This document shows positions 11,937-61,608 of a DNA stretch of 64,000 nucleotides, piece after piece. A program made the position numbers and the translations under genes. Source of the DNA: an uncultured Clostridia bacterium (GTDB lineage Bacteria; Acidobacteriota; Aminicenantia; UBA2199). Positions within the stretch are counted from its first letter, which is position 1. Every line of letters starts with the position of its first letter. The stretch lies in contig CAZCVI010000007.1 of the NCBI GenBank assembly GCA_964502145.1, positions 118,297 to 182,296 on the forward strand, in the 5' to 3' direction. The notes under the pieces are model-generated. The model worked only from the letters and a program-made list of their open reading frames with translations, was not told where the DNA came from and made no database searches.

Positions 11937-12092
11937 TGAATCCACCGCCAAATTTCTTAAATCGTTGTGGACAATATGGACGTAGTGGACGATATGGACA
12001 AAAAAATGCTTTTGTTTTTGCTCCACTTCGTCCACATCGTCCATTAAGTCCATATCGTCCATGTTTTTTCACAAATCTGATGGTGAATCCAG
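11937..12092 (+). mobile_element. Hairpin element H1 (MITE-like): terminal repeats ...GAATCCACCGCCAAAT / GGTGAATCCAGG, arms of tandem 9-mers (nnnnTGGAC), conserved loop AAAAAAATGCTTTTGTTTTTGCTCCA
   Basis: Read directly from the sequence. It is homologous to the copies at 48.0, 51.9 and 61.5 kb. Confidence 0.7.
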
Positions 12093-12110
12093 GGGAGGCT
12101 GTTCAAAAAA

Positions 12111-12277
12111 CTGCCTAATGGTTCCGACGGTCAGGAACCTTTGAACCTGGCCGGGAATTAAAATTTAATTATAGTACATATTCCCGGTCAATTCAAGAGT
12201 GAAAAAACCGTCAAAAATTACCGAACGTGACCAAAATGTGACTATCTTTTTTTTTGACCAAAAAAAGAAGTGCCGTA
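12111..12277 (+). repeat. Island-boundary repeat copy A (about 165 bp) with core CCGAACGTGACCAAAATGTGACTAT and 5' motif GGTTCCGACGGTCAGGAACC
   Basis: It aligns along its length with 17711..17873 in the same orientation. A core copy also occurs at 20346..20367. Confidence 0.6.
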
Positions 12278-12355
12278 GTCTGGTTACGTTTGGTGGATTT
12301 ATAAACTGTCATCAGCTAGGAGTTCAAGTAGTCATTAATCGAAATGCTATATAAA

Positions 12356-12865
12356 CTATAAGCGTTGAAAACCATTTTCATTGTGCAGACTAATCCATAG
12401 GCGGAGGCCTGGGGTATAAGAACCGACAATTATCATTATAAAAGCATTCAGTTCGTGCTTTGATTTTAAAAAGGAGTCTTGCATTGAGTGCAAGTCTATT
12501 ATAGAAGGAGATGGATTTCGCTGAAAATGGGTATGCCATTCTCCCACAAAGTGGAGATCTGTATTGAAGAACTGGGAAATGATATCTTTTTGCGGCTTTC
12601 GATACGGAATAAAGCTGAACTTGCTCCTCTTATCTAGTTTGTGTGGTGTTGTAGCTTGTTTGATGATGATTCTTGGTAGGCAAAGTTCGGCGAATAAAAG
12701 TCCTCCGGCTTCTGGTTTTCCACCAGTTTGGCGATAAAATTTAAAGATTTCTATCACCGGATCACTTAACTCCAAAATTTGACCCGAATTTGGTATTCGG
12801 TATCGAAAAACAGTGTCTTTGCTATCATCTAATTGCATACGGTGCAATCCTTTTTGGAATCCCAA
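12356..12865 (-). CDS. cap3: Cap3-like JAB/JAMM (MPN+) deubiquitinase-family peptidase
   Basis: JAMM motif E...HTHx7SxxD (EWHTHFQRNPSPSIIDL). It is the last gene of the operon and its start overlaps the end of cap2. The start could instead be M10 at 12838. Confidence 0.8.
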   Translation of the reverse strand: MGFQKGLHRMQLDDSKDTVFRYRIPNSGQILELSDPVIEIFKFYRQTGGKPEAGGLLFAELCLPRIIIKQATTPHKLDKRSKFSFIPYRKPQKDIISQFFNTDLHFVGEWHTHFQRNPSPSIIDLHSMQDSFLKSKHELNAFIMIIVGSYTPGLRLWISLHNENGFQRL

Positions 12866-14580
12866 CTTGTATAATGCACCCTGGAATATCCTTTTGAATC
12901 AATACGCACCTTCCATTCCGGGGAAATCAATGCATCAGTATTCCAAAAATACTCTCTATCACTTATCCAAGTCTTGAGTTCGGACCTTTCAGGTTTTTCA
13001 TTAAGGCTCCTTATTGCCTCATTGACAATTAATGAAACCACTGGTAGCATTGCAGCCGGGCCATACTGTTGATATTGTGTGCATTCACCGGGTTCACGTT
13101 TTAGTGTCTTCCCCTGAAATTTCGTTACTGCATATTTAAACTGACCGAATCTATTCATCTCACATGCCAAACAACCACTTCCATTTACCCTCAATAGACA
13201 GTGACCCGCGACGGCATAAGGCTCAAGCCATCCAAATAGAATAGGGGGAATTTTAATCTCATGAGATATGTAATTTAAAGGTCCTTCGCTTCTCCAGTCC
13301 CCAATAGTACTGACAATGATATCATAATTATCAAATAATTTATCATTGTCTCGAAGCGCATCTTGCCATTTCTTTGTAATCCAAGAAATTTGAAGATGTG
13401 GCATCTCGTTTCCTAAAGATAGAGCTGTTGCTTGTGCTTTGAACCTTCCACAAAATTTTGCTCCTAAAATGTGTCGTCCGATATTTGCCCATTTTAATTT
13501 GTCGTGATCTATAATAGTTATTTTGGAAACTCCAGCCTTGGCCAAATAATGTGCAACATATCCACCCAATGAACCGCAACCTATTAGTAATACAGCGCGT
13601 TTCTGAAAACTTCCTCCGTCCCCTCCACGAGAGTGAATCCAGGAATAATCTATACGTTCAACCAAGCATTTTGTGACTTTTGTCTTTTTCATCAATGGCA
13701 GACATTTGTCTATTATTTCTCTAATAGATTGCTTACCACTCATTATGAGATTATAATTAGTTACAGTCGTTACCTGAAAATAGACTCCCCCAAGAGCATA
13801 GCCATTATCTGTTTTCTGAGCTAAGAGAACAAAAATAAGAGGCTGTTTGGATACAAACAGCTTGATTAGCAACTCAAGCTCTTCTTCTGCATTTATAGAT
13901 AGTAACATGGTGACTAAGTCACTTAATGTCTCAGGGTATTCTTTTGGAAGTAAAGGGGCATCAAGAACTACCAAAATCCCATTTCTTGTTGATTTAACTT
14001 GGTTTTTAGTTCCAAAAAAATTCTCTTGCCATTTTTTTAAGCTTTCGGTAGAGATTGACGCAAAGATGAAATTTTCAGAATATGATATATCAAATGAGGT
14101 ACCAAGAACTTCTGGAGAATCAATAAGTAGAGAGACTTTGCCTCCGCTATCCAGGCAACGATTCCAATATACAGAAAATTCTGTTTGAAAATCGTCCACT
14201 TCTTTTCCTTCAAGTATTTTCTTTGTGGACTCAACTACTTCCCAAAATAAATCAACCGGATTATTAATATCAATACTTGATGATTCAGGAATAACACATA
14301 AATTACCATCTTCAAAGACATGAGGTATTTTTAATATCAATTTTTCGCCTCCAAGCACTTTGATTTGAGGAGGCTGGTCTGGAAAATCTTTGGTCAAGAG
14401 AACATGTATTTCCCATTTCTTTCCATTTGTTTCGACAAAGCTGCTCCATACTTTAAATTCTGATGGGTATCCATTATCTTCAGGTGGTAATTCACAAAAT
14501 TCCTTGTTATCAGCCAAAGCTTCAGAAATCATCTGAATAGACCGGTTTCGTCTGTCATTCAAACTGGACAAACTACTCAT
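12829..14580 (-). CDS. cap2: Cap2-like E2-E1 fusion (UBC-like N-terminus plus ThiF/MoeB-type E1 adenylation domain)
   Basis: E2-like PHVFEDGNLCVIP carries the catalytic Cys. E1 Rossmann motif LLIGCGSLGGYVAHYLAKAGVSKITIIDHD. C-terminal CxxC. ATGA overlap with the upstream CD-NTase gene. Confidence 0.85.
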   Translation of the reverse strand: MSSLSSLNDRRNRSIQMISEALADNKEFCELPPEDNGYPSEFKVWSSFVETNGKKWEIHVLLTKDFPDQPPQIKVLGGEKLILKIPHVFEDGNLCVIPESSSIDINNPVDLFWEVVESTKKILEGKEVDDFQTEFSVYWNRCLDSGGKVSLLIDSPEVLGTSFDISYSENFIFASISTESLKKWQENFFGTKNQVKSTRNGILVVLDAPLLPKEYPETLSDLVTMLLSINAEEELELLIKLFVSKQPLIFVLLAQKTDNGYALGGVYFQVTTVTNYNLIMSGKQSIREIIDKCLPLMKKTKVTKCLVERIDYSWIHSRGGDGGSFQKRAVLLIGCGSLGGYVAHYLAKAGVSKITIIDHDKLKWANIGRHILGAKFCGRFKAQATALSLGNEMPHLQISWITKKWQDALRDNDKLFDNYDIIVSTIGDWRSEGPLNYISHEIKIPPILFGWLEPYAVAGHCLLRVNGSGCLACEMNRFGQFKYAVTKFQGKTLKREPGECTQYQQYGPAAMLPVVSLIVNEAIRSLNEKPERSELKTWISDREYFWNTDALISPEWKVRIDSKGYSRVHYTSWDSKKDCTVCN

Positions 14581-15644
14581 CCGAACCTGCCGCCACCCCT
14601 GTGATCGACTGAACCTTTAGGAGTTGAAACTGCTATCCCAGCAGCAAAGTTGCTAACATTTTGACTATCGTTATTATTTTCATCATATTTTTTAAAGAAG
14701 CCATCACTCTTAAACACCCAATCCCAGATTGTGCTAGCGTCGGATTGCTTACAATCTATATTATCAAGAATTTCCAGTTTCTCCAGTGCTTCCTTGATTT
14801 TTTCCAATAACTGACAGACACTGTCATCCATTAAGGTTCGGGTAATTTGTGGATTATCGGGGTGTGCAAGATTAAAAATAACTTTCGAACATTCCAAACG
14901 TTTTTTCAGGTTCTTTAGAAGATTTCGAAAAGCTATGTCTAAGCCGCTTGAAAACTCCGGCTGACATTCAGATACAAGCATAGTTAACTTCATACCATTG
15001 GGTAAATCCCAATTTCTTTGACTGCGGCAGAATCGTTTCAATAACTGTACGAGTCTCCTCATTTGGGTACCTTTGCCATCCGTATTGTAGTTGCGATTTG
15101 TAACCTCAGATTCGAACCATACAGTAACCTGCGTCGGGTCTGAAACTGTCCAATTTTCGCCACTGGCAAGTTCTCGTTCGTATTTCCCTTCTCCATCATT
15201 ATACTTTCGATACACAGGAAAATCAACGTGATGTTTTTCTTCATCTCCATCTGCATAGAAAACACGAACACAATTGGTGCATAGTCTTGGCTGTCGATTA
15301 AAACGATTGTCCTTTAGTGCCTCTCGTACTTTATTTTTTACATCCATAGCTGACAATTCGTTTCCTTCAGCATTTATTAGATCACTTTTCCATAAAACCA
15401 AGCCATCATCTATATCGTATTCTTCATCCAAAAAACGTGCCTGAATAATGGTTTTCATTGCCATTGAGCCCTGGGGTTTGAAAGAAGATTCCCCGATGCT
15501 CAACCCCTCTATCTCTTCGGGAAGTCTTTTAATCAAGCGGTCACGGTTTACCTTTCTATGATTGAACAACTTATTTTTAGAATCCTCTCTAAGACATACC
15601 TTTTCATCCCAAAAGGCCTCTATTCGCTTACTATAATCGTACAT
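14577..15644 (-). CDS. cGAS/DncV-like nucleotidyltransferase (CD-NTase)
   Basis: Pol-beta-type GS...DID motif (QGSMAMKTIIQARFLDEEYDIDDG). Third acidic residue in HHVDFPVY. C-terminus ends ...GGGRFG, a Gly terminus suited to Cap2-mediated conjugation. Confidence 0.8.
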   Translation of the reverse strand: MYDYSKRIEAFWDEKVCLREDSKNKLFNHRKVNRDRLIKRLPEEIEGLSIGESSFKPQGSMAMKTIIQARFLDEEYDIDDGLVLWKSDLINAEGNELSAMDVKNKVREALKDNRFNRQPRLCTNCVRVFYADGDEEKHHVDFPVYRKYNDGEGKYERELASGENWTVSDPTQVTVWFESEVTNRNYNTDGKGTQMRRLVQLLKRFCRSQRNWDLPNGMKLTMLVSECQPEFSSGLDIAFRNLLKNLKKRLECSKVIFNLAHPDNPQITRTLMDDSVCQLLEKIKEALEKLEILDNIDCKQSDASTIWDWVFKSDGFFKKYDENNNDSQNVSNFAAGIAVSTPKGSVDHRGGGRFG

Positions 15645-15652
15645 GATCTCTC

Positions 15653-16408
15653 CTATTCTGTAGTTTCACTGAGTTGATTTGCGTATGCCATCCAATCAAC
15701 TGCTGGGACAGTGGCAAGTGATTGAAGTTTCCAAAGTAGACGAAATGCAAAATATGCAAGGGCGTTTCTCCTCGGACCAAATGAGTAATTATTATCCTCT
15801 GAAAAGACATCAAAGCAAGCTCCCGTCACTGCAAAACCACAATCAATTTTTTTGTGACCCGTCAATTGCAGATGATTTTGTTGGAAAGTGTCGCCTAGCC
15901 CATCGCCCCAACTAACATCTATAGCAAGGATTCCCCCAATGATATTAAACAATGGTTTTGCGTTGAATACACCTCCAGCGTGAAAAATATCGACGGATGT
16001 GCGTTTAAGCTTACGAACCGATGCAATCTTTTCGCCTGCGTATTCAAGGTATTGCTTATTAATGGTTGGTTTACATTCAAACACCGCGTAAACCGCTTCT
16101 GCCGGAACGTATCTGTGTTTGGCGTTGTCCAATAATGTTGGAGTATATTGCCGGTCAAATACCACAACATCAATTGAATCACTAACCGCTCCTTCACTGT
16201 CAAGAACGATAGCCTTCTCTACTGTGTACCGATTTGGTAGATATGAACGCAGGAAATCAAGAAAAAACTGTTCATTTACTTCTCCGCGGTCACCTGGATG
16301 CGTAATACGTGAAGATGAGCGAAGGTTTACTTCAAGACATTCTTGTTCGGATGAAAAAGCATCTCTGAGGAACTGTGTCGAGTTGGGAATATTTAATATT
16401 GCACACAT
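15653..16408 (-). CDS. Putative CBASS effector with a restriction-endonuclease-like PD-(D/E)xK motif (possibly NucC-like; about 251-284 aa)
   Basis: SIDVVVFD...AVFECKP gives D...D...ExK. The start is ambiguous. ATG 16408 follows the upstream stop. ATG 16507 has a GGAG 3 nt upstream but would overlap the DUF2188 gene by 74 nt. Confidence 0.55.
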   Translation of the reverse strand: MCAILNIPNSTQFLRDAFSSEQECLEVNLRSSSRITHPGDRGEVNEQFFLDFLRSYLPNRYTVEKAIVLDSEGAVSDSIDVVVFDRQYTPTLLDNAKHRYVPAEAVYAVFECKPTINKQYLEYAGEKIASVRKLKRTSVDIFHAGGVFNAKPLFNIIGGILAIDVSWGDGLGDTFQQNHLQLTGHKKIDCGFAVTGACFDVFSEDNNYSFGPRRNALAYFAFRLLWKLQSLATVPAVDWMAYANQLSETTE

Positions 16409-16433
16409 CTTGGTGTCAGTGTATTTATAAAAA

Positions 16434-16682
16434 TTACATTTCAGTATCTTTGATTGATCTCGGATCATTTCCCGGGGCAATAGTATCTTTACTACGAATT
16501 TTCCCATTAACTCCCTTTGTGATCAATTCACCACCACCTTGGTTATTGAGCATTTTTTTTGCAGTGTCCCCTGCCTCTTTTTGAGTATTGTGAAGCGAAG
16601 ATGCTTGATCGGAATCAATCCGCTTATTAACCCATTTTCCATCATTACGCTTGTAAACTATTCTATCTCTGTCTTTGCTCAT
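16434..16682 (-). CDS. DUF2188-family small protein (82 aa)
   Basis: The DUF2188 pattern is present (VYKRNDGKWVNK...TQKEA...ELITKGVNGKIRSKDTIAPGNDPRSIKD). AAGGAG lies 6 nt upstream of ATG 16682. The track ORF starts further upstream at TTG. Confidence 0.7.
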   Translation of the reverse strand: MSKDRDRIVYKRNDGKWVNKRIDSDQASSLHNTQKEAGDTAKKMLNNQGGGELITKGVNGKIRSKDTIAPGNDPRSIKDTEM

Positions 16683-17347
16683 ATCTTTCTCCTTTGTTAA
16701 TATTAACAATTCTCATCTTTTTCCTTTCCTTATGATTCTGACCCTTGTTTTCAGTATCCATGGGGCTATTAACTTTATTTTCCTCCTTCTCTGGCTCTAA
16801 ATCTGAGTCAAACGTCACCACATAAATATTATCCTAAAATGCTAATATTATATTGTAGCATCAATTTTCCATTTTGTCAACAAAAAAAACAGTATCTATT
16901 CAGTTTTTTGGCAGCGGCCCCACCCACGTCGCTTTGCGCCGTGGGATTATAACTGGAAAGAAACTCGTGCAATTGGGAGTGCTTGGAAACAGTAGAGTAA
17001 AAGAATGCGACAAGGATGTCGCGTCTACATAGACGCGCCATCCCTGGCGCATTAAAAAAAAATATACTGCCAAATTACTGGTATCTCCTGAAGAGGTATT
17101 TGCTCCCATGGATGATATTTGGGCGGATTATCTGTGACAAAAGCCAAATCTCGGCAGTTACGGAAAACCTTACACCAAAAACAATGATTAGTGTGCTCAT
17201 TTGTAAATAAATTCCCCGATTTTTCGGAAATTTTGCCCTCCAGCCTGATTCGCAAGTGAATTAGGGTCAGTGATGACTGAATTAGAGTCAAAAAAGTGCA
17301 AATAGGGTAAACGATGACCGATTTTCATGTAAATTTTTCCTCAAAGG

Positions 17348-17380
17348 GTCAACGATGACCCTCGGAGGGACATCGTTGAC
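17348..17380. repeat. Near-perfect 33-bp palindrome GTCAACGATGACCCTCGGAGGGACATCGTTGAC
   Basis: Read directly. It is part of a composite element that is repeated in inverted orientation at 57.2 kb. Confidence 0.8.
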
Positions 17381-17422
17381 TGATTTAGATAGAATTCAGT
17401 GCAAATTCGTATCATTTTGACC

Positions 17423-17640
17423 GATTTTCAGTCGTGGATGACCGATGGCGGACAATTTTGTCCGACAAGGGACAATGATGAGTGATTTTCAGTCGTGGAT
17501 GACCGTTGGCGGACAATTTTGTCCAACAAGGGACAATGATGAGTGATTTTCAGTCTCTGATGACCGATGGCGGACAATTTTGTCCAACAGGGACAATGAT
17601 GAGTGATTTTCAGTCGCTGGTGACCATTGGGCGGCAAAAA
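17423..17640 (+). repeat. Tandem direct repeats: 3.5 units of about 61 bp (GATTTTCAGTCGTGGATGACCGATGGCGGACAATTTTGTCCGACAAGGGACAATGATGAGT), each with an internal small hairpin
   Basis: Units run 17423-17483, 17484-17544 and 17545-17604, then a partial unit. No unique spacers are present, so this is not CRISPR. Confidence 0.85.
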
Positions 17641-17710
17641 TAATACTATTAGGCTTGGCAATGCTTTTATTCCTGAAATATAGCCTGACCAGAAACTAAA
17701 AAATAATTCC

Positions 17711-17873: not shown

Positions 17874-17908
17874 GATACGCGAATTGATGGATAGGTTGTT
17901 CGTTGTTC

Positions 17909-18661
17909 CTAATGACCTTTTGGAACTATTACAACCTTGACAATAAAATCGTCGTTATTTCTGGCAAGATCATTTTCTAATCCTCTTGGGTTTGATATCA
18001 ATCCTTCTGGATCATAAACAAAACAGATGAGTTTCTTACAATCTGGATGTTTTTGATATCGCTGAATATCCACTAGTAGCTCTTCTCCAATCTGTTTCTC
18101 CTTTAAGGTTTTCCGGGTCTTCTTTACTTCAATGATTATTTGTTCTTCCTTTATGAGGAAATCTATCCTTGAGTTACTCCCGGCATAGCTTGGCGTATAT
18201 TCTTCAGGTCGGATATCATCAAAAAAAATGTGTAACAGCGAATGCAACAAATCCTGCGTGTCATATTCATCGTTGACTTCCAGTGTTGCACCTTCTGAAT
18301 GGCGTGATCTCAGTTGCTTCGCAACAAGATGAAAACGCGAACATATTTGCTCTATCAGTTTAAGAGAATTTTGTTTACTTGGCTCCGATACCAGTTGGGA
18401 TAGCTTTTCTTTGCTTAGAGTCCACGGAAATGGCTCACCGCAATTTTCACAATGTGTCGGAACAGGTTCTGTAGAAGGAATACCAAATACACCATCAACA
18501 TGGTAATCTCCCTTTATTGGATGATTACAGTGCGGACATTGGTGAATAGTTTTTTCACCACAACTTGGACAGAAGCTTTTTCTAAACTCAGGATATTTAT
18601 TGTAATTGTCTGTAGTTTGATGACCTTTCAAACAAACTTGCTGAACATCATAATCTCCCAT
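17909..18661 (-). CDS. Hypothetical protein with two N-terminal zinc ribbons and a C-terminal PD-(D/E)xK-like nuclease-fold motif
   Basis: CPSCGEK...CPHCNH...CENCGE. C-terminal ...FFDD...RIDFLIKEEQIIIEVKKT gives D...ExK. Confidence 0.55.
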   Translation of the reverse strand: MGDYDVQQVCLKGHQTTDNYNKYPEFRKSFCPSCGEKTIHQCPHCNHPIKGDYHVDGVFGIPSTEPVPTHCENCGEPFPWTLSKEKLSQLVSEPSKQNSLKLIEQICSRFHLVAKQLRSRHSEGATLEVNDEYDTQDLLHSLLHIFFDDIRPEEYTPSYAGSNSRIDFLIKEEQIIIEVKKTRKTLKEKQIGEELLVDIQRYQKHPDCKKLICFVYDPEGLISNPRGLENDLARNNDDFIVKVVIVPKGH

Positions 18662-19067: not shown

Positions 19068-19096
19068 TGATTTTCATTCTTCAAGTGTGTAATATA
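19068..19096 (+). promoter_or_regulatory. Promoter candidate: TTGATT, 17 bp spacer, TAATAT
   Basis: Read upstream of the 19187 gene. Confidence 0.3.
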
Positions 19097-19186: not shown

Positions 19187-20299
19187 ATGGATAATAAAAA
19201 CAACTATGAACGCAAAATAAGAGGACGCAAACGCATGGATGCCTCATTCCCCGTTGGGCCTGGAAATGGCGATTTGCCGGAAAGTTATGACACCACGCTT
19301 GGTTCTATCAAAGCACGCATCCAGACTGAACGTCTTCGTATGGTTTTGTCTGCCAATGAAGCAATGATATTGCTGTATTGGGATATTGGCAATGAAATTC
19401 TTGAACGCCAACAACAGGAAGGTTGGGGGGCAAAGGTTATTGACCGACTTTCGGCTGATCTGTGCAAATCTTTTCCCGATATGAAGGGCCTTTCAATGCG
19501 AAATTTACTATTCATGCGTTCTTTTGCGGAAGCATACTCGGATCGGCAAATAGTGAAACAGCTTGTTTCACAATTGCCTTGGGGGCACAATATCCGTATT
19601 TTACAAAAAATCAAAGACCTGGAGAAACGCTTGTGGTACATCAAAATGAGCATTCAAAACGGCTGGTCCCGAAATATTCTTGAACTTCAGATTGATTCCT
19701 GTACATGTGAGCGTCAAGGACAGACCATAAATAATTTTGCAATCACATTGCCTCCTGGGGATTCAGACATGGCAGCTCAAGTATTTAAGGATCCATATCT
19801 ATTCGATTTTATAGGAACAGCCGATCCTCGTCGTGAACGCGAAATTGAGCAGGCCCTAGTAGATCACATTCAGCAGTTCCTGCTGGAACTCGGGACAGGA
19901 TTTGCATTTGTAGGACGGCAGGTTCACCTTGAATTGGGCGATAATGATTTCTATATCGATTTGCTTTTTTATCATCTTATATTACGTTGTTATGTGGTCG
20001 TTGAATTGAAGGCTGTGCCTTTTGAGCCAGGTTTTGTTGGCACATTGAACATGTATTTGTCTGCTGTAGATGATCTATTGCGCCATCCGGACGACAAACC
20101 AACCATTGGATTATTGCTTTGTAAGAACAAAAAACAGCTATTGGTAGAGTATGCACTTCGTGGCTTTCGAAAACCTATCGGTGTGGCTGAATGGGAGACG
20201 AAGCTTGTTAAATCGTTACCTTCTGAATTGAAAGGCTGTTTGCCTACGATAGAAGAGATTGAAGCGGAACTTACAAAGAAAGTGCAAAATAATGAATAA
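19187..20299 (+). CDS. YhcG-like DUF1016 PD-(D/E)xK nuclease-family protein
   Basis: The length and the C-terminal motif DFYIDLLFYHLILRCYVVVELKA are characteristic of the DUF1016/YhcG family. Confidence 0.7.
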   Translation: MDNKNNYERKIRGRKRMDASFPVGPGNGDLPESYDTTLGSIKARIQTERLRMVLSANEAMILLYWDIGNEILERQQQEGWGAKVIDRLSADLCKSFPDMKGLSMRNLLFMRSFAEAYSDRQIVKQLVSQLPWGHNIRILQKIKDLEKRLWYIKMSIQNGWSRNILELQIDSCTCERQGQTINNFAITLPPGDSDMAAQVFKDPYLFDFIGTADPRREREIEQALVDHIQQFLLELGTGFAFVGRQVHLELGDNDFYIDLLFYHLILRCYVVVELKAVPFEPGFVGTLNMYLSAVDDLLRHPDDKPTIGLLLCKNKKQLLVEYALRGFRKPIGVAEWETKLVKSLPSELKGCLPTIEEIEAELTKKVQNNE

Positions 20300-39817: not shown

Positions 39818-40896
39818 TTGACATCTCCAACAGCCCTTAATGCCAATCCCATGGCCACATTAAACTCGGGGGCCTTTTCTTTGATAAAATCCAGATCGAA
39901 TTTTTTTTCATTGATTTCAATGTTATTAAAAGGGTTGACAATTTCCACGGGGATATCGAATTCCTGGGAGAAAAAATCAATGATGGATTCCAGGTTGGAT
40001 GTTCCACCGCTCAGTAAAATATTATCAATTCGTCCTTCGGAGGTATTGGAGCGATAAAATTCGAATGTTTTCTTGATCTCAGATTTAAGCTCGTTAAAGA
40101 TCAGATTGATGACCGGTTTTACTGCGGCTGTGGAAACGCCGTCGACTTGCCTGCCCTTTTTCACGGATTCGGCCTTCTCATACTTCAGGTTCAATTCTTT
40201 CTGGATTAAATCGGTGAATTGATTTCCTCCAAAAGCGATATCGCGGACAAACACGGGGTTACCGTTCTTGGCAATGATCACATTGGTAATGGATGCGCCA
40301 ATATTAATAATGGCAATGCTACGATCAATATACATCTCATAATTGTACATGACACTGTTTAATACGGCAAAAGATTCCAAGTCAACAATCTCGGTGGTTT
40401 TATCGGCAATAGCAATGACATTTAAATAATCGTTTAATTTTTCCTTTTTAGTAGCGGCCAGAATAACGCCCACGCGATCGGGATGGATATCTGACGATTC
40501 GATGATCTCGTAATCGATATTGACCTCTTCCGGGGTGAATGGAATATGGGGGCGTGCTTCCCATAAAATATGTTCATGCATTTCGTTCTGACTTAAACGT
40601 TGCACTTCGATCCGCTTTACGATAACGGAGCTACCGGAAACGCCGAAAGATAACTGGTTGGTTTTGGTCTTAGACTCGTGGAAGATATGAGCTATGGCGT
40701 CAGCCACAGCGGTGGAGTCCATAATACTGCCTTCAACGATAGATTGATACGGAACCGGCTCATACCCGAATGCCACCAACTCGTAATGCATCTCTTTACC
40801 CTTTTTCTTGGGTTTTAACTCAATGAGCTTTAACGCAAACGAGCCAATGTCTAGGCCCAATATTTTTTTTGGTTTCAAAAAGCTAAAAAATGACAT
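39814..40896 (-). CDS. pilM: Type IV pilus assembly ATPase-fold protein PilM
   Basis: Actin-like fold motif LGLDIGSFALKLIEL. First gene of the pilMNOPQ operon. Confidence 0.9.
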   Translation of the reverse strand: MSFFSFLKPKKILGLDIGSFALKLIELKPKKKGKEMHYELVAFGYEPVPYQSIVEGSIMDSTAVADAIAHIFHESKTKTNQLSFGVSGSSVIVKRIEVQRLSQNEMHEHILWEARPHIPFTPEEVNIDYEIIESSDIHPDRVGVILAATKKEKLNDYLNVIAIADKTTEIVDLESFAVLNSVMYNYEMYIDRSIAIINIGASITNVIIAKNGNPVFVRDIAFGGNQFTDLIQKELNLKYEKAESVKKGRQVDGVSTAAVKPVINLIFNELKSEIKKTFEFYRSNTSEGRIDNILLSGGTSNLESIIDFFSQEFDIPVEIVNPFNNIEINEKKFDLDFIKEKAPEFNVAMGLALRAVGDVK

Positions 40897-41529
40897 TGAT
40901 TTCTCCGTTTCCTTTTATATTATTCATTTTCATTGTCCATTTATTATCCATTTATTATCCATTCATTGTCCATTCATTGTCTATATCACTGTTTGTGCAT
41001 CATCCATTCTTTTCTAACACAGCAAAAATAAAAAGTCAAGTATTTTATTTTTTTTTTTACTGTCATATCGGGGGTTTCACCCGTGAATTTTCTGGAAATC
41101 CTGGTTGCAAGGGCATTTTGTGTTTTAAGACGAAAACCTTCACTACCAAATTGTTTAAAGCACTGGCACTGTTTTTCCTCAGGGTCCAACCGCCCTGTCC
41201 ATTCAAAACCAACCATATGCATGCCAACCTTTTTTCGTTTCAAAGTAAAACCTCCAATTTAGTGTATAGCAAATTTCCTGCCAACACTGAACAAAATCGT
41301 GAATGTCTCTATATCGGCGTTATTGCGGGTAAATTGAGGAAATAAACGGCGTCATTTTCCTGACACTATGCATTAAAGATTGTCAAGGATATGATAAAAT
41401 ATACCTTTTCGGGGAAATTTTTTCTGTTTTTAGCGTGGGCTTGGGGGGGTATAAAAAAAGACAGAAATCGCCTGAAATGGTGCAGTGCTATAGCGAGAAG
41501 TCGGTGATTACTGTTTCTAATGAAGGAGT

Positions 41530-42685: not shown

Positions 42686-42882
42686 ACCTGGATTCACCGG
42701 CAGGTTGATGGGAAGTCTGGGAAGTCTGGGAATTATGGGAGGAATGGGAGGAATGGGAATATTTCTGTTTATCCCATAATTCCCATAATTCCCATAATTC
42801 CCAGAGTTCCCATAATTCCCATAATTCCCAGACTTCCCACTTGCTTTTACGATACTCTCATTGAACTGGCAGTGAATCCAGT
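42686..42882 (+). mobile_element. Hairpin element H2 (same family, different arm sequence): arms of tandem 9-mers nnnTGGGAA on one side and TCCCATAAT-type on the other, with ends CCTGGATTCACC...CAGTGAATCCAG
   Basis: Read directly. It has the same architecture and terminal repeats as H1/H3/H5, but the arm repeats are unrelated in sequence. Confidence 0.7.
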
Positions 42883-42900: not shown

Positions 42901-43248
42901 TCATACACCCACTGGCATATCCCATAATAGTGACCAATTTTTGACACAAGGCAGTGAATCGCGAACTATTTCAGGCATTACCCGGCTTAGAATTTGGCAC
43001 TGGGTGCTTTTTACCAGTTCTGCCAGCCGAGTCTCCACCCGTTTATTTTCCAGAGAATTGTATTTTTGTTTAATCAGGGAAATTTCCATTGCCAGTTCCC
43101 CGATTTTTTTTTCAAACATGTTTTCGCCGGTGGAAAGCAGGATTTTTAGTCGGGAGATGATACGATCTTTCTGATGATAATCTTCAAGGGCGCGTTCGCC
43201 GATTTTCCAGTTTATTCGGGTATTACCGCGAATTTTTTCGCTGCTCAC
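42901..43248 (-). CDS. Hypothetical small coiled-coil protein (uncertain)
   Basis: ORF only. No RBS or motif support. Its 3' end abuts repeat H2. Confidence 0.3.
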   Translation of the reverse strand: MSSEKIRGNTRINWKIGERALEDYHQKDRIISRLKILLSTGENMFEKKIGELAMEISLIKQKYNSLENKRVETRLAELVKSTQCQILSRVMPEIVRDSLPCVKNWSLLWDMPVGV

Positions 43249-43342
43249 AGCTTTGACCAGTTGGATTTCACGTCGTGATAGATAAAATCGCCTTCCACTT
43301 GAACGTCAACGACTGGAATTCCATCAAGCCACCCCCGATCAG

Positions 43343-43478
43343 CAGGCTGGACTATCTGGACATACTGGACTTACTGGACAAGCTGGAAAAAGCAAAGGTT
43401 TTGTGAAGTCCAGTAAGTCCAGTATGTCCAGTATGTCCAGACAGTCCAGTTTTTTCTGAAACTTGATTGTGAATCCAG
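43343..43478 (+). mobile_element. Hairpin element H6 (divergent copy): arms of nnnCTGGAC 9-mers, right end TGTGAATCCAGG, degenerate left end
   Basis: TATCTGGACATACTGGACTTACTGGACAAGCTGG, then a loop, then CCAGTAAGTCCAGTATGTCCAGTATGTCCAGACAGTCCAG. Confidence 0.5.
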
Positions 43479-43683
43479 GTTTCTTGGCATGCCCATGCTT
43501 CGGACCAGAAACAAATGGCTTAAAAATTCATGAAACGGCTTCTAATAAAGATTTTTGATAACCCACCGCATCAGTAGTGGTTGATTTAGGTTGATTTAGG
43601 TTTTTTGGATAATTGACATTGCTTTTAAAATCTAGTACAATACAATAAAAGACGTTGCTAATAATGTAAAAGAGGTTGAAAAA

Positions 43684-47808: not shown

Positions 47809-48032
47809 TAAATAATTATCCCTCCGGATAAATTATGAAAGGATGATACCAGGGGAGTCTGTGATGAGTGGTCAATCCACTTACTACAGAGCTCCCCATT
47901 TTTCCACCACAAAATCAAAACCGCAAAAACCCAGTTTTGCGCCAAATCCTTGTGCGATAGCGGGGGGTTTTTAGGAATCTGCCATTTATACATCTACTTA
48001 TCAATATGAAATCCTGCAACCCTATCTTCCAT

Positions 48033-48200
48033 CCTGGATTCACCGCCAAATATCTAAAATCGTTGTGGACGATATGGACTTAGTGGACGATATGGACAAA
48101 AAAATGCTTTTGTTTTTGCTCCACATCGTTCACATCGTCCATATCGTCCACTAAGTCCATATCGTCCATGTTTTTTCACGAATCTGGCGAAGAATCCAGG
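48033..48200 (+). mobile_element. Hairpin element H3 with best-preserved terminal inverted repeats (CCTGGATTCACCGCCA ... TGGCGAAGAATCCAGG)
   Basis: Arms are (GATATGGAC)n against (GTCCATATC)n. Same loop as H1/H5. Confidence 0.75.
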
Positions 48201-48229
48201 CCATAGACAGAAAAATGTCATAGTTGGCA

Positions 48230-48486: not shown

Positions 48487-48530
48487 AAAAAAAAACCCCC
48501 TGACTTGCGCCAGGGGGCCTTTTTATTTCG
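48487..48530. terminator. Bidirectional intrinsic terminator (CCCCCTG-loop-CAGGGGG flanked by an A-run and a T-run)
   Basis: Read directly. It lies downstream of the TonB receptor gene. Confidence 0.6.
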
Positions 48531-51889: not shown

Positions 51890-52075
51890 CCCACCTCCAC
51901 CGCCAGGTTTTTGTAATCGTTGTGGACGACGTGGACAGAATGGACGATATGGACGATGTGGACGATGTGGACGATATGGACAATAAAATGCGTTTGTTTT
52001 CGGTCCACGTCGTCCACTAAGTCCACTCTGTCCACGTCGTCCATTCATTTTCAAGAATAGGATGGTGAATCCAGG
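51890..52075 (+). mobile_element. Hairpin element H4 (arms GACGTGGAC/AGAATGGAC/GATATGGAC..., loop AATAAAATGCGTTTGTTTTCGGTCCA), adjacent to tRNA-Phe
   Basis: Read directly. It ends GGTGAATCCAGG. Confidence 0.7.
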
Positions 52076-52196
52076 GATTAACCTTGAGACACTGGTGTGG
52101 AAGGAGTAAAAAGAGGAGAAGAAAGGAAAAATTAAGAAATTATATGAATAGGACTTGACTTCCTTCCACTTTTCCATTATAATAACATTTTATAAT

Positions 52197-53659: not shown

Positions 53660-53689
53660 TTTAGCATAGACAATTATAAGATAGACAAT

Positions 53690-53747
53690 ATCAGTTATAT
53701 CAGTTATATCAGTTATATCAGTTATATCAGTTATATCAGTTATATTT
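53690..53747 (+). repeat. Tandem 9-bp repeat (ATCAGTTAT, about 6.5 units)
   Basis: Read directly. It lies immediately upstream of the terminator hairpin. Confidence 0.85.
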
Positions 53748-53748
53748 A

Positions 53749-56865: not shown

Positions 56866-57039
56866 CTATAATTTGAGTATTACGTATTGAGTATTACGTA
56901 ATTTCAGACTTGTTCAGACGTGCTGATTGCAGCGGAAACGGTGTTGGAATTGGATTTTGGGTAATTCTTCCAAGAGAAAGGAACTGGCTTTGTCATGAGA
57001 GATCGTGGACGAGTAAAAAGCACCCATCACTACCGCTAT

Positions 57040-57230
57040 TTAGTCAAAATTTGCGGCCATCGGTCACGACGGAATAAAAATCACTCATCATTGTCGCGTG
57101 AGGGACAAAATTTTCCGCCATCGGTCACCAGCGAGTGAAAATCATGCAAAATGATACAAATTAGCTCTGAATTCTATCAAAATCGGTCAACGATGTCCCT
57201 CGGAGGGTCATCGCTAACGCTTTAAGGTAG
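57040..57230 (-). repeat. Inverted copy of the 17.3-17.6 kb composite element (about 2 units of the 61-bp repeat plus palindrome GTCAACGATGTCCCTCGGAGGGTCATCG)
   Basis: The reverse complement aligns with 17340-17540. Confidence 0.7.
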
Positions 57231-57386
57231 TCAAAATCCGGGGTGGGCGGGGTATTAACACGTTATTAGCTTCTTCCCCACCAACCCCGGGGCAACTGCA
57301 TTCGTTTAGAATGCAGCCAAATTTATGCTTTTTTTGTACTTTTCAGTGTGATGGGTTTTTAGCCTTTTTGGCTTTGGCCCTCGCCC

Positions 57387-58163
57387 TTACTTTTGATTAC
57401 CCGTGGTATCAGCAGCAGGAGTAGGTTCGCTCACAGGTTGGGTTTCAACCGTGGCTTCGTCTGCTTTCTGTTGTTTTTCTTTTTCAAACTCCTGGGTAGT
57501 AGCGATCTTGGTGATGACCAAACGTCCCTGGCGGGTATTGTTTTCCAGTTTCAAGACATTTTTTCGCAACATAAAGACGTAATCCTGGGTGCTGCCATCA
57601 ATGGCGGTAATTTGGACATTGGCTTTGACCAGGTGGGTTTCACCGGTGTAGAGTTCAAAATTCCTGTCGATGGTGGTGGATGCTTTAATCAATGTTTTTT
57701 CGATGCCGATCATTTTTTTGGTCTCATTGATCTGTTGCACCAACTTAACTATGGTTACTTTTCTTCCATCCAAATCGGCTTGAGCGAGGTCGATATTTTT
57801 CTGGAGTTCAGCTTTTTGGTCGCGTCTACCGGTTCCGTCCAATTGATCTTGCATTTCTTCCAATGCAAATTTCTTGTCCATATGGACTTCAATCTCTTTT
57901 TTCCTGGCTTCAGTCAGGTCGGCCAATTTTTTCTCAAGAACAGGAAGTTGCATGGGACCAACAATAGGAGCCTCAATAGACATTATTTTAAAAGACTTAA
58001 ACTCAATGTCTTTGGGTTCAATGGCCATAGAAGCCAGCGTGTCATTATCGTTCACCTTCATCGCTTCAAAATACTTGGAAATCGTGACTTCTTCACCTTT
58101 TTGACACGCGGTCATCATGAGCATCAGACCGAACACTGCCAGCAATAAAATAGTTTTCTTCAT
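57387..58163 (-). CDS. Lipoprotein of unknown function
   Basis: Signal peptide with lipobox (LMMTAC). The body is coiled-coil-rich. Confidence 0.7.
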   Translation of the reverse strand: MKKTILLLAVFGLMLMMTACQKGEEVTISKYFEAMKVNDNDTLASMAIEPKDIEFKSFKIMSIEAPIVGPMQLPVLEKKLADLTEARKKEIEVHMDKKFALEEMQDQLDGTGRRDQKAELQKNIDLAQADLDGRKVTIVKLVQQINETKKMIGIEKTLIKASTTIDRNFELYTGETHLVKANVQITAIDGSTQDYVFMLRKNVLKLENNTRQGRLVITKIATTQEFEKEKQQKADEATVETQPVSEPTPAADTTGNQK

Positions 58164-58450
58164 AGTGGTTCTCCTTTAAATTTCGTGGTTTTAAAAAAAT
58201 GCCTGGGCATTTCATTGATATTTATTTCAACGCCTTTTTTACCGGCCTCAATTAGGCGGTTGGGAAAAAGGGTGTTTCCTACATTACCAGTACGCAGATA
58301 AGCCGGAACCATGGCTGGGGGTATAGTAACCGCACCTCCAAAACCAAGGTGACACCGTCTTCTTAATAGATCACGACAGGGGGCGATCACCTCGTCCAGA
58401 CATATTGGAAAGCAAGACAACTTTTCTATTTTCTCAGTCTCTGTATACAT
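58160..58450 (-). CDS. Hypothetical small Cys-containing protein
   Basis: ATGA overlap with the downstream lipoprotein gene suggests co-translation. CxxxC...C...C pattern. Confidence 0.45.
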   Translation of the reverse strand: MYTETEKIEKLSCFPICLDEVIAPCRDLLRRRCHLGFGGAVTIPPAMVPAYLRTGNVGNTLFPNRLIEAGKKGVEININEMPRHFFKTTKFKGEPL

Positions 58451-58574
58451 AAGTATAGATTATAAGGAATTTGGAAGTGAAAATCAAGCGAAATCTAATT
58501 TTTCACTAAATCATATTGCCAGATTTTTTTTTGGGGGGTACTGGAAGACGGGAAAACAAGAAAACAATGAGACA

Positions 58575-59297
58575 TTAATCCCGTGCGTTGCGCAGGAGTT
58601 CTTTCATCCGCAGCACTGCTTTTTCCAGTCCCATGAAGGTGGCATTGGCGATGATGGAATGACCGATATTCAGTTCATCTATTCCGTCTAACCGTGCGAT
58701 AGGGATGACATTTTGATAGGTCAAGCCGTGACCGGCGAGAACCCTGAAATTCACCTTGCGGGCATAAATGACTGCTTTTTCGATTTTATCCAATTCGAGG
58801 CGGGCATAGTGGGTATTCCAATTTTTAGCGTATTGGCCGGTATTGATTTCAATGGTTTTGATGCCCAATTTGTAGCAGGCTTTAATCTGTTCGATATCGG
58901 GGTCGACAAAAACAGATACTTCGATACCAGCGGCATGAAGGTTACTGGCGACTTCTTCAACTTTGTCATTGTACACGACAACATCCAAACCACCACTGGT
59001 GGTCACTTCCTCGGCGCTTTCAGGGACAAGGGTGCAGGTATCGGGTTTATTTTTTAATGCCAGTTTGACCATTTCCATGGAAATGGCCATCTCAAGGTTC
59101 AAGCGGCTTTTAATCACGGCCCGGAGCAATTCTAAATCGCGGTCCTGAATATGACGCCGATCCTGCCGGATATGGATAGTAATACCATCGGCACCAGCCA
59201 ATTCCGCGAGGGCCGCAGCATATACGGGATCGGGTTCATTGGCCATGCGGGCTTGCCTCAAGGTTGCAATATGATCAATATTCACTCCCAATTTCAT
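58575..59297 (-). CDS. pdxJ: Pyridoxine 5'-phosphate synthase
   Basis: MKLGVNIDHIATLRQAR N-terminus. Start set at the ATG with AAGGAG 6 nt upstream. The track ORF begins 8 codons earlier. Confidence 0.9.
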   Translation of the reverse strand: MKLGVNIDHIATLRQARMANEPDPVYAAALAELAGADGITIHIRQDRRHIQDRDLELLRAVIKSRLNLEMAISMEMVKLALKNKPDTCTLVPESAEEVTTSGGLDVVVYNDKVEEVASNLHAAGIEVSVFVDPDIEQIKACYKLGIKTIEINTGQYAKNWNTHYARLELDKIEKAVIYARKVNFRVLAGHGLTYQNVIPIARLDGIDELNIGHSIIANATFMGLEKAVLRMKELLRNARD

Positions 59298-59349
59298 GTG
59301 TCTCTCCTTTATTTGCATCATTTCCTTTTGCTTTTATTTAACTTTTCTT

Positions 59350-60744
59350 TTATTTTCCTATGGCTGAACGAATGACCTGTTCAAACCGAGTCATATTTTC
59401 TTCGATGATGTGGGGATGTTGGGATTCCATCATGAGCCGTATTATCGGCTCAGTGCCAGAATAACGGATCAACAGCCGCGAATGGTCACGGTACTTCTCA
59501 TTAAAAGCAGTGCTCATCTGTTGGAGTTGTTCCCACTGCTGGAGGTCTTTCTTGTGGGTAATGGGGATATTTTTTATGACCTGGGGATACACTTTGAACT
59601 GTTCAATCACCTGGGAGGGATGGATATCCAGGGTAGCGAGTGCTTTGAGAAAGTAGAGCGCGGTGAGTAAACCATCGCCAGTGGGTTGAAAAGAGGGCAA
59701 CACGATATGACCGGATTGTTCACCACCGAGTATAGCGCCCCGCAGTTTTAATTCACTGGAGACGTATTTATCGCCGACTTCGGTTCTCAAAAATAGAATA
59801 CCCAGTTGTGCCAAGGCTTTTTCCAGTCCGAGATTTGCCATCACTGTGCCAACGACAAGCTTGGTATTATTAAAATCTTGACTGGTTTTTAAGAAATACG
59901 CGGCGAGGATATAAAGAATAAAATCACCATCCAGAAGATGCCCGTGGCTATCGACAAACAACACCCTGTCGCCATCACCGTCAAAGGCAATACCGATATC
60001 AGCATTTAAAGCCTGCACGGTTTGGGCCAATGAAGCGGTATGGGTAGAGCCGCAATGGAGATTAATATTGCGCCCATCTGGAGCGGCATGGGTGACGGTG
60101 AGGTGCGGAAATACTTCACGGAAAACACGGGGTGCAAGCTGAAATGTGGCACCATGGGCACAATCCAAGACGACTTTAAAACGGGCGCCAGGGATTCCCT
60201 GGGCGTGGGTGGCTAAAAACTGGTAGTACAACTGGTTGGTTTTGGCGGGGTCGGTAATAATGGCTGGTTCAATAGCTTGGACCGGTATTTGTTCAGCTTC
60301 ACACGGGTTAAAGAAGATATGCTCCAACTCTTGTTCCATGGTATTGGAAATCTTCTCACCCCTGGAATTGAATATTTTGATACCATTGTCAGTATAGGGA
60401 TTATGGGAAGCAGTGATCATAATGCCATAATCAAAATCGCCATTACGGGTGACGAAGGACAAACCGGGGGTGGGGATCACACTGCAACTGTAAATTTCGG
60501 TTTGAGCTGCTTGTTGAAGAATACCGGTGGTCAGGAGCCGCTCTATAGAAGAACCGGAGCTACGTGTATCACGACCAATTACAATGCGACACGGTTTAGG
60601 GGCGGCGTGGAGATACTGGCCGATGGTCGTACCAAGTTTTAAAATGGAAGGATCATCGAAAGGGAACTGACCCACAAGACCACGAATCCCATCGGTGCCA
60701 AATAATTTTTGCCCTTTATCCTTCATTTTTTTGTTGATTTTCAC
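59350..60744 (-). CDS. glmM: Phosphoglucosamine mutase
   Basis: FGTDGIRG. Phosphoserine loop TASHNPYTDNGIKIF. GTG start per the track. ATG 60726 is an alternative. Confidence 0.9.
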   Translation of the reverse strand: MKINKKMKDKGQKLFGTDGIRGLVGQFPFDDPSILKLGTTIGQYLHAAPKPCRIVIGRDTRSSGSSIERLLTTGILQQAAQTEIYSCSVIPTPGLSFVTRNGDFDYGIMITASHNPYTDNGIKIFNSRGEKISNTMEQELEHIFFNPCEAEQIPVQAIEPAIITDPAKTNQLYYQFLATHAQGIPGARFKVVLDCAHGATFQLAPRVFREVFPHLTVTHAAPDGRNINLHCGSTHTASLAQTVQALNADIGIAFDGDGDRVLFVDSHGHLLDGDFILYILAAYFLKTSQDFNNTKLVVGTVMANLGLEKALAQLGILFLRTEVGDKYVSSELKLRGAILGGEQSGHIVLPSFQPTGDGLLTALYFLKALATLDIHPSQVIEQFKVYPQVIKNIPITHKKDLQQWEQLQQMSTAFNEKYRDHSRLLIRYSGTEPIIRLMMESQHPHIIEENMTRFEQVIRSAIGK

Positions 60745-61423
60745 TGTTGGCTGTCCCTTCTTTTATTTTATTCCCGACTTGGAGATGGATTTCAATGGTA
60801 TCGGCATCATCGAATTTTAAGATATCCTTGCTTTTTTTAAGGGGGAGGCGAATAACACAGCTTTCATTGATAGTGGTTAAATCTACCCAATCGACGACTT
60901 CTACAAAGGAAATTTCTTCGATTTGAGACTTATACCCGAAGATGCGCACTTTTTCTGGTACGATCTGGCGATCCTGAAGAACGATGCCGGGTTTGAGTTC
61001 TCCTTTGTACCGGACCCGTACTGGCACTTCGCGGCTGACAAACTCCTTGACGATGATTTCAATCATGCGGGGATGAATGGATACGAGCTTCACGCCAGCG
61101 GGGTATTGAAGATAATCCTCGGTGAAATAGTTGAGTCTGGTCCCCTCAGTGACATCTTTTAAGTCGATCTTGATCTTAAAATCGGCATCGGCGAGTTTTC
61201 CCAGTTCTTTGGAGGTGCCGCGGATGGTTAAGCGGGCTTTTTCGGGGCGGACACTGCTGACATCAATATTTCCGGCCACATTGAAGTACTCGACATTCAC
61301 ATCGATAGTCCGTTCGGAATTGGAACGTTCTTTCCCGGAAATCATTGCCCATGCGAGCAACGCCAAGAAAAGCGCGGTGACTTTTAATCCGAAATTGTTA
61401 AAAACCAGTTTCTTTATATTCAT
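60716..61423 (-). CDS. cdaR: YbbR-domain protein (CdaR-like regulator of diadenylate cyclase)
   Basis: N-terminal TM anchor followed by YbbR-like beta repeats. It sits in the conserved position between cdaA and glmM. Confidence 0.75.
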   Translation of the reverse strand: MNIKKLVFNNFGLKVTALFLALLAWAMISGKERSNSERTIDVNVEYFNVAGNIDVSSVRPEKARLTIRGTSKELGKLADADFKIKIDLKDVTEGTRLNYFTEDYLQYPAGVKLVSIHPRMIEIIVKEFVSREVPVRVRYKGELKPGIVLQDRQIVPEKVRIFGYKSQIEEISFVEVVDWVDLTTINESCVIRLPLKKSKDILKFDDADTIEIHLQVGNKIKEGTANSENQQKNEG

Positions 61424-61441
61424 TACGACCTGTTATCCCTA

Positions 61442-61608
61442 CCTGAATCCACTGCCAAATTTCTGAAATCGTTGTGGACGATATGGACGATATGGACTTA
61501 GTGGACGATATGGACAAAAAAATGCTTTTGTTTTTGCTCCACATCGTCCACTAAGTCCACTCTGTCCATGTCGTCCATGTTTTTTCACGAATCTGGCGGT
61601 GAATCCAG
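61442..61608 (+). mobile_element. Hairpin element H5 inserted in the cdaA-cdaR intergenic region
   Basis: CCTGAATCCACTGCCAAAT...(GATATGGAC)n...loop...GTCCAT repeats...TGGCGGTGAATCCAGG. Confidence 0.75.

Follow-up and report, generated by a model that had tools for sequence, protein, structure and literature searches.

We examined a 64-kb stretch of DNA (hereafter, the window) from contig CAZCVI010000007.1 of an uncultured Aminicenantia bacterium and found in it six short, hairpin-forming elements, designated H1–H6. [quoted passage not shown] As a class, MITEs are known and ordinary. What is unusual for bacteria is that the arms of these elements are built from tandem 9-bp repeats.

The elements were recognized by their ends. 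At three or fewer mismatches, a 16-nt end motif, CCTGGATTCACCGCCA, matched the window 12 times, compared to an expectation of 0.34 from shuffled sequences. The matches pair as left (plus-strand) and right (minus-strand) ends around the six elements, all of which are intergenic and measure 159–196 bp (Table 1). The ends common to the window elements are CCTGGATTCACCGCC...GGCGGTGAATCCAGG, and GAATCCAG is unchanged at the right end of every copy. No coding capacity is evident, as the open reading frames (ORFs) that overlap the elements are short and unsupported. Between the ends, Tandem Repeats Finder located period-9 arrays in both arms of all six copies, and a repeat finder identified the arms as inverted repeats of 32–53 nt with complementarities of 77–100%. 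The fold calculated for H4 has an energy of -83.9 kcal/mol (z = -12.8 vs. shuffled sequences). A T6 run is located 3' of the hairpin on the plus strand in four of the six copies (H1, H3, H4, and H6).

These features allowed an earlier, sequence-only reading of the window to be checked. That reading had listed six copies, all on one strand, and the end-motif matches bore this out, with every copy on the plus strand. Likewise, the solo end that it placed near position 10581 proved to be a right-end remnant. Other statements held only in part. The terminal inverted repeats said to be shared by all copies are evident in the 12 end-motif matches, but in H3 and H5 the left end is degenerate. The 9-mer arrays are present, but the copy of CTGGAC type is the third one listed (at 43343) rather than the one at 61442. 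A 26-nt loop described as conserved is exact in H1, H4, and H6; H5 has a variant of it, and H2 and H3 lack it. Finally, the T-run, which had been placed after the loop, is instead found 3' of the 3' arm.

Do the elements bear the marks of transposition? Exact 4-bp direct repeats flank H4 (CCAT, at 48029–48032 and 48201–48204) and H6 (CCTA, at 61438–61441 and 61610–61613), and the sequences flanking H5 (GATA and GATT) match at three of four bases. H1 and H2, the ends of which are mutated, have no target-site duplication. Flanking repeats were scored in these five copies; H3 was left out on account of its degenerate left end. The probability of encountering two exact 4-mers among five scored copies by chance is about 1e-4. 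In a related family from the Nitrospiraceae (see below), four of six complete copies are flanked by exact 5-bp duplications (TTGAG twice, GTGAA, and TTCAC).

The locus occupied by H6 could be compared with its counterparts in other genomes. In the window, the spacer between cdaA and cdaR, with H6 in it, is 273 bp long. The corresponding spacers in Aminicenantes relatives are 17 bp (locus L068), 9 bp (L069), 22 bp (L071), and 12 bp (L072) long, and that of L070, at 119 bp, contains no element. For the closest relative, whose CdaA is 95% identical, a spacer of 113 bp can be read from the gene table; this is too short for the 168-bp H6. The CdaA homologues with 82–86% identity are named Candidatus Aminicenantes. 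No copy was present in ~80 kb of sequence from four relatives, as opposed to six in the 64-kb window; thus, the expansion in this lineage was recent. A base-exact empty site was also sought for H5, but the intergenic DNA was too diverged for alignment. Additionally, contigs assembled from short reads of this organism break off within H1, H4, and H6, as is typical of multi-copy repeats. The window itself is contained in a 202-kb metagenome contig, ENA ERZ27262927 k141_389012, and the organism is also represented in JGI sample 3300020048. The description “MITE-like” in the sequence-only reading was therefore apt: the elements have terminal inverted repeats, 4–5-bp duplications, no coding capacity, and multiple copies, and they are absent from the orthologous sites of relatives.

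Beside H6, at 61614–61696, the spacer harbors about 95 bp of AT-rich DNA comprising a 12-bp tandem repeat (ACATTATACAAA, 2.7 copies) and CATATATAT repeats. Relatives with spacers of 9–22 bp lack this stretch. That the closest relative has a spacer of 113 bp suggests that the stretch predates the insertion of the MITE.

To find relatives in other phyla, we searched GTDB, with each species represented by a single genome, for GAATCCAG preceded by three GTCCA units spaced 9 bp apart. At least 38 loci were returned. About a third of them were coding or chance matches, and the rest were intergenic elements of the same design. In one metagenome-assembled genome (MAG) of the Nitrospiraceae (CAZPMT01), there are at least 14 copies of 167–211 bp with the ends CCTRGATTCGGCAG...CTGCCGAATCYAGG; they have at least four NNNRTGGAC units before a loop and at least four GTCCAYNNN units after it. 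Elements of this design also occur in Hydrogenedentes MAGs (L001, L008, L032, and L037), in a member of the Victivallales (L028, of the CTGGAC type), in Omnitrophota (L022), in Planctomycetota (L031, L034, and L035), and in Syntrophobacteraceae (L006 and L009). As judged from sequence, then, no fewer than five or six additional phyla have elements that combine the ends with GTCCAY 9-mer arrays. In some of these phyla, a single array is found beside the end, and the adjoining ORFs encode housekeeping proteins (PolA, AsnB, HisS, and CorA). Such neighbors rule out that the single-array copies are the ends of full-length transposons; they are therefore small elements or half-elements.

A scan of metagenomes with the left end, which did not return the window’s own organism, gave 10 loci. 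Most were chance or coding matches, one was beside an unrelated IS3 element, and only two (L063, 13–260, and L067, 873–1110; JGI Ga0105099 contigs) were related. The arms of these two are composed of 7-bp units, GTTCAAC and TTTGAAC, and their end forms a small hairpin of its own, CCTGGATTCACCGCC-AAAT-GGGGCGGTGAATCC. Thus, tandem-repeat arms are a general feature, whereas a period of 9 is not universal. In viral collections, a first scan found nothing and a second found only collagen-like coding repeats, indicating that the 9-bp GTCCA periodicity is not specific when taken alone.

Two further observations concern these relatives. The loop and subterminal sequence of the Hydrogenedentes locus L001 (1–116; …CAGGTGAGTCTT…, …CAACTGCCGAATCCAGG) are also found in Nitrospiraceae copies (e.g., L019 and L026), suggesting either that the element was transferred horizontally from one phylum to another or that a bin is contaminated. 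In L022, L034, L035, and L037 (Omnitrophota, Pirellulales, Planctomycetota, and Hydrogenedentota, respectively), a small hairpin, GTCATTCCGGCGAAGGCCGGAATCCAGG, is located at the terminus directly beside the GTCCAY arrays. This hairpin may resemble the widespread palindromes of the ATTCCC-N8-GGGAAT type, such as dRS3 of Neisseria.

The repeat unit itself proved to be well defined. When the units were anchored on TGGAC, the same logo, N-R-TGGAC-R-N, was obtained from the window, from the Nitrospiraceae MAG, and from the remaining phyla, which form three independent sets. A purine precedes the core in 92–100% of units and follows it in about 81–86%, and the other positions are near random; the search pattern had left these flanking preferences unimposed. 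Between the arms of the Nitrospiraceae elements, 36% of linker positions form Watson-Crick pairs and 14% form G:U pairs, compared to 25% and 12.5% for random sequences. Moreover, these arms pair no better within an element than between elements, i.e., there is no element-specific covariation. (An initial comparison of arm complementarity was uninformative, as free end gaps inflated the identities.) Given this near-random pairing of the linkers, it is an inverted array of a 6–7-bp motif, not a perfect hairpin, that is conserved in the Nitrospiraceae copies. At L014 (4531–4598), one arm has grown to seven perfect GTCCATTCC units, with four still present in the opposite arm. This arrangement shows that the number of units changes in one arm at a time, which indicates slippage.

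The units have a conserved core and linkers that are free to vary, their spacing is fixed, and they occur in both orientations; in this, they resemble arrayed protein-binding sites, as the sequence-only reading had remarked. The conservation of the motif across phyla and the lack of complementarity between the spacers lend this idea some support; the existence of a 7-bp variant shows that the 9-bp period is not universal. A precedent is found in the plant MITE Emigrant/Lemi1, the transposase of which binds to both the terminal inverted repeats and subterminal repeated motifs (PMC1636448). Binding of subterminal repeats by the transposase also has a precedent in the eukaryotic Foldback-type elements (PMC3169594, PMC4168063). 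The 9-mers may be binding sites for a protein, a proposal that we advance tentatively. Two sets of elements run counter to a simple version of it, namely H2 and a remnant (L055), which have these ends but TGGGAR units, and the elements with 7-bp units (L063 and L067). The remnant, at 122–171 of L055, is situated at the contig end about 5 kb past the right end of the window; it is the remnant of a half-element of the TGGGAR (H2) subfamily, reading TCTGGATTCACTACCAAATTAATGGGAAGAATGGGAATTGGA on the window’s plus strand.

Which enzyme might mobilize such elements? Terminal inverted repeats combined with short duplications of fixed length point to a DDE transposase. The window ends CCTGGATTCACCGC and CCTGAATCCACTGC begin with CC, as do those of the IS1380 family. 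ISEcp1, which belongs to this family, has a left inverted repeat of CCTAGATTCTACGT, a right one of CCTAAATTCCACGT, and 5-bp direct repeats; IS1247, another member, also has 5-bp direct repeats. CCTGGATTCACC and CCTGAATCCAC of the present elements compare with CCTAGATTCTAC and CCTAAATTCCAC of ISEcp1 and with CCTGAATAATTC of IS1678. Other members begin with CCTGAATTATTCA, CCTGAATAATTCA, and CCCACATTCC, and the ends of a Lactiplantibacillus member, IS1678, and ISKpn23 read CCTGAATTATTCAC, CCTGAATAATTCATAC, and CCCACATTCCCC, respectively. The lengths of the duplications (4 bp in the window copies and 5 bp in those of the Nitrospiraceae) fit the 4–5 bp of the IS1380 family. On the strength of end sequence and duplication length, the partner could be an IS1380-family DDE transposase; we consider this the leading candidate, with a chance slightly short of even. 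In their CC-starting ends and 4–5-bp duplications, the elements are thus like ISEcp1, IS1247, IS1678, and ISKpn23. They differ in that no transposase gene is part of them or linked to them in the window or the loci searched.

The searches for a partner were as follows. A Pfam scan and gene tables covering about three dozen of the larger window ORFs (not all of them) revealed no transposase or Y1/HUH domain. The ISEcp1 transposase had no tblastn match in the window or in loci L001–L040. No partner emerged from an all-against-all blastn comparison in which the 38 genome loci were examined for long repeats in common, from a search for end pairs 0.9–3.5 kb apart, or from a blastn search of plasmids with H4, and no autonomous element with these ends was among the metagenome hits to the left end.

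The mechanism that we propose has the following parts. A transposase encoded elsewhere in the genome would recognize the ~16-bp terminal inverted repeats, CCTGGATTCACCGCC. A staggered cut at insertion would give rise to the duplication, 4 bp here and 5 bp in the Nitrospiraceae relatives. Each half of an element is an array of 9-bp units with an R-TGGAC-R core and variable linkers, and the inversion of one array relative to the other makes the element a near-palindrome. Replication slippage would make the arrays grow and shrink, and the conserved cores would be the subterminal sites at which the transposase or an accessory protein binds. The autonomous partner would be bounded by CCTGGATTC...GAATCCAGG. 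A bolder extension, which we view as speculative and rather unlikely to hold in full, is that the R-TGGAC-R arrays bind a dedicated protein (a transposase domain or an accessory or host factor) and, together with the CCTGGATTC ends, define a superfamily of “foldback” transposons in bacteria that has yet to be described. Such a superfamily would have spread horizontally across at least six phyla, and its autonomous member would be uncharacterized. The phyla that might be included, with the same reserve, are Aminicenantes, Nitrospirota, Hydrogenedentota, Lentisphaerota, Planctomycetota/Omnitrophota, and Desulfobacterota.

Several observations weigh against the transposon interpretation or parts of it. 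Three of the five scored window copies (H1, H2, and H5) have no exact target-site duplication. The window, the 38 genome loci, and plasmids yielded no autonomous element bearing these ends. The similarity of the ends to those of IS1380 members extends to only 8–11 of 14 bases, which is suggestive but not decisive, and the four characterized members examined have no subterminal 9-mer arrays. H2 has the same ends as the other copies but TGGGAR units, an awkward combination if one transposase reads both the ends and the arrays. Lastly, the avoidance of terminators invoked below to account for orientation relies on three informative copies (p ~1/8).

The presence of all six copies on one strand deserves comment. 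The probability of this outcome (p = 2 x 0.5^6, or ~0.03) makes it weak evidence, and two Nitrospiraceae copies that are 1.5 kb apart in L011 have opposite orientations. Shared orientation is therefore not a property of the family; the strand bias noted in the sequence-only reading exists in the window but goes no further. That reading also held that the orientation disregards neighboring genes. This does not hold for the informative copies: the three copies between co-directional genes (H1, H2, and H6, the last of which is inside an operon) are all between minus-strand genes, antisense to their neighbors, with the T-run on the non-transcribed plus side. H3 and H5 are upstream of predicted promoters. 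In this AT-rich host, T6 after the hairpin would make the plus strand, but not its reverse complement, a very strong intrinsic terminator, and copies inside minus-strand transcription units would survive only in the orientation observed. We thus infer terminator avoidance rather than an effect of replication. Removal of sense-oriented copies by selection, in a window where minus-strand genes predominate, may be enough to explain the bias.

Could the hairpin itself be what is selected? The elements might be structured-RNA genes or cis-elements (small RNAs, RNase III substrates, or intrinsic terminators) for which mobility is incidental. They fold very stably, T6 follows the hairpin in four of the six window copies, and one strand folds better by virtue of G:U pairs in about 7 of 11 Nitrospiraceae copies. 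That G:U excess, however, may descend from a single master copy, in that shared ancestry confounds the comparison, and the window copies exhibit no consistent strand asymmetry of G:U vs. A:C. In Rfam 15, the only window match at threshold was the tRNA; in E-value mode, only generic miRNA-hairpin models scored, at about half their thresholds. As for intrinsic terminators, the T6 hairpins are on the plus strand, but H1, H2, and H6 are antisense to local transcription and cannot terminate their neighbors, H4 is beyond another, real terminator, and the T-run is missing from the Nitrospiraceae and other relatives. The Nitrospiraceae spacers, moreover, pair barely above the random level and do not covary element by element. 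We thus regard an RNA function of this sort as improbable.

Even less probable, in our view, is either of two remaining accounts. In one, the hairpins would be akin to REPIN or PATE elements and be moved as single-stranded DNA by a Y1/HUH transposase, which would explain a strand bias linked to replication; the sequence-only reading had suggested a TnpA-REP or IS200/IS605 Y1 partner. The hairpins and their common strand are compatible with this, as is the GC skew, which is negative over most of the window, where most genes are on the minus strand. IS200/IS605 and REPIN HUH elements have neither terminal inverted repeats nor target-site duplications. The present elements have both, with duplications of 4–5 bp, and their ends resemble those of the IS1380 DDE family. 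Further, the CCTGGATTC ends are free of GTAG and CGTC tags, the window ORFs scanned revealed no Y1 transposase domain, and the relatives in L011 occur in both orientations. While IS200/IS605 PATEs have subterminal hairpins and a fixed tetra- or pentanucleotide 5' of the insertion, the flanks here vary (CCAT and CCTA). The duplications, the missing tags, and the lack of a Y1_Tnp domain in the ORFs scanned also uphold the statement of the earlier reading that the elements are neither REP nor BIME. In the other account, which we deem just as doubtful, the 9-mers would serve the host as iterons, DnaA-box clusters, or centromere-like or nucleoid-protein sites, and only look like a transposon. It would accommodate the strict 9-bp periodicity, the variable linkers, and a core conserved across phyla. 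But the elements are at scattered, unrelated intergenic sites and are absent from the orthologous sites of close relatives, meaning that the host does not need them; the target-site duplications mark transposition; a variant with 7-bp units exists; and subfamilies with different cores (H2 vs. H1) coexist in one genome. The faint resemblance to DnaA boxes reported earlier did not survive scrutiny: only the outermost unit, TGTGGACGA, comes within two mismatches of TGTGGATAA, and the units fail the consensus at required positions.

Other candidates were tried and rejected. The logo N-R-TGGAC-R-N does not fit the DnaA box or iterons, TTATNCACA (TGTGNATAA). A coding (Gly-X-Y) origin of the 9-mers is contradicted by stop codons in the arms and by the intergenic position of all copies. 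The ends do not match the R boxes of integron attC sites, a CRISPR array would have spacers, which are missing here, and ends of the IS607 type are incompatible with the terminal inverted repeats and duplications.

How does the non-autonomous transposon favored here compare with known systems? Like bacterial MITEs (Correia/NEMIS in Neisseria, MITEAba12, and Nezha), the elements are small, non-coding, intergenic, and multi-copy. They share with them terminal inverted repeats, short duplications, lineage-specific expansion, and, presumably, a transposase supplied in trans. The interiors of those MITEs, however, have no inverted arrays of short tandem repeats, whereas nearly the whole interior of the present elements consists of two opposed 9-mer arrays with variable numbers of units. 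We found no bacterial MITE with opposed short-motif arrays of variable unit number in the literature searched. The body of the BrickBuilt MITE of Porphyromonas gingivalis, which is always intergenic, is a minisatellite of variable copy number (PMC4596501), but it is a single array of direct 23-nt tandem repeats without opposed foldback arrays, and its ends are unrelated (PMC4596501). REP, BIME, and REPIN sequences with their RAYT transposases are likewise short, intergenic, multi-copy palindromes (PMC3733652, PMC3116915); REPs differ in their length (20–40 bp), their GTAG/CGTC tags, their lack of duplications, and their link to Y1 enzymes (PMC3733652, PMC3116915). The elements are most closely paralleled by the Foldback elements of eukaryotes and by those plant MITEs that carry subterminal repeats. 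Fold-back arms made of short tandem subrepeats in variable number are also found in Drosophila FB, Galileo, Tm1, and Emigrant/Lemi1 (PMC3169594, PMC4168063, PMC1636448). FB and Galileo are much larger, and these eukaryotic elements are mobilized by other transposase superfamilies; the likeness is one of design only, with no relationship in sequence.

If the arrays are transposase-binding sites, these elements would constitute a simple bacterial model for the role of subterminal repeats in the assembly of transposition complexes, and they would point to an uncharacterized IS1380/piggyBac-like branch in uncultivated phyla. There are practical consequences as well. The elements break short-read assemblies of this organism, and one of them, H6, is inside the essential cdaA-cdaR-glmM operon. 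A hairpin with a T-run can create or block termination, which matters for the annotation of Aminicenantes genomes and the reading of their operons.

Table 1. Positions of the elements, the remnant, and the genes of a neighboring defense operon in the window
Feature	Position	Strand	Description	Surroundings
H1	11935-12093	+	159 bp; left end GCTGAATCCACCGCCA, TGGAC-type 9-mer arms, loop AAAAAAATGCTTTTGTTTTTGCTCCA, T6, right end TGATGGTGAATCCAGG	between minus-strand CBASS JAB gene and minus-strand 2-hydroxyacid dehydrogenase gene
H2	42687-42882	+	196 bp; second subfamily; ends CCTGGATTCACCGGCA ... TGGCAGTGAATCCAGT; arms of TGGGAR-NNN 9-mers, 42708-42760 and 42772-42839	
H3	~43312-43479	+	CTGGAC-NNN 9-mers, arms 43347-43387 and 43409-43449; T6; right end TTGATTGTGAATCCAGG; left end degenerate (ACTGGAATTCCATC, one base extra), left boundary therefore approximate	
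H4	48033-48200	+	168 bp; perfect left end; arms with 32 nt at 100% complementarity	convergent genes on both sides; beyond real terminator 48489-48524
H5	51890-52075	+	186 bp; left arm 7 units, right arm 4-5; left end degenerate (CCCACCTCCACCGCCA)	between divergent TonB-receptor gene and tRNA gene; upstream of predicted tRNA promoter 52155-52183
H6	61442-61609	+	168 bp; perfect right end	between cdaA and cdaR (ybbR) of minus-strand cdaA-cdaR-glmM operon
Solo right-end remnant	10568-10596	+	GGTTTTTTTACATTGGCAGTGAATCCAGG	just upstream of start codon of minus-strand gene 7315-10536
DUF6602 protein	15653-16507	-		CBASS-like operon
DncV-like CD-NTase	14577-15644	-		CBASS-like operon
E1/E2 fusion	12829-14580	-	ThiF + Prok-E2_B domains	CBASS-like operon
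JAB deubiquitinase-like protein	12356-12865	-		CBASS-like operon

Some neighbors of the elements merit mention. H1 is located about 260 bp downstream of a defense operon on the minus strand (12356–16507) that resembles a type II cyclic-oligonucleotide-based antiphage signaling system (CBASS). Exactly between H2 and H3 is an ORF of 115 amino acids (42901–43248, minus strand), possibly a gene, without a match in Pfam and with a high predicted content of coiled coil.

The window also contains other repeats. Between positions 16709 and 17909, a 61-bp tandem repeat (17423–17625; 3.3 copies, 91% identity) with the palindrome GGACAATTTTGTCC in each unit adjoins genes for a DpnII/MboI-type restriction endonuclease (17909–18661) and a YhcG PDDEXK nuclease (19187–20299). 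A perfect 9-bp tandem repeat at 53688–53745 (ATATCAGTT, 6.4 copies, 100% identity) has no hairpin and no CCTGGATTC ends and is unrelated to the MITE family; directly after it come a GC-rich stem-loop (AGGGGATGCATGGCATCCCCT) and a T-run. An A-rich repeat with periods of 21, 42, and 63 bp (654–840) overlaps ORFs at 594–1106, and an 11-bp repeat of about five copies (40918–40981) is located at the start of an ORF without a Pfam match (40890–41345).

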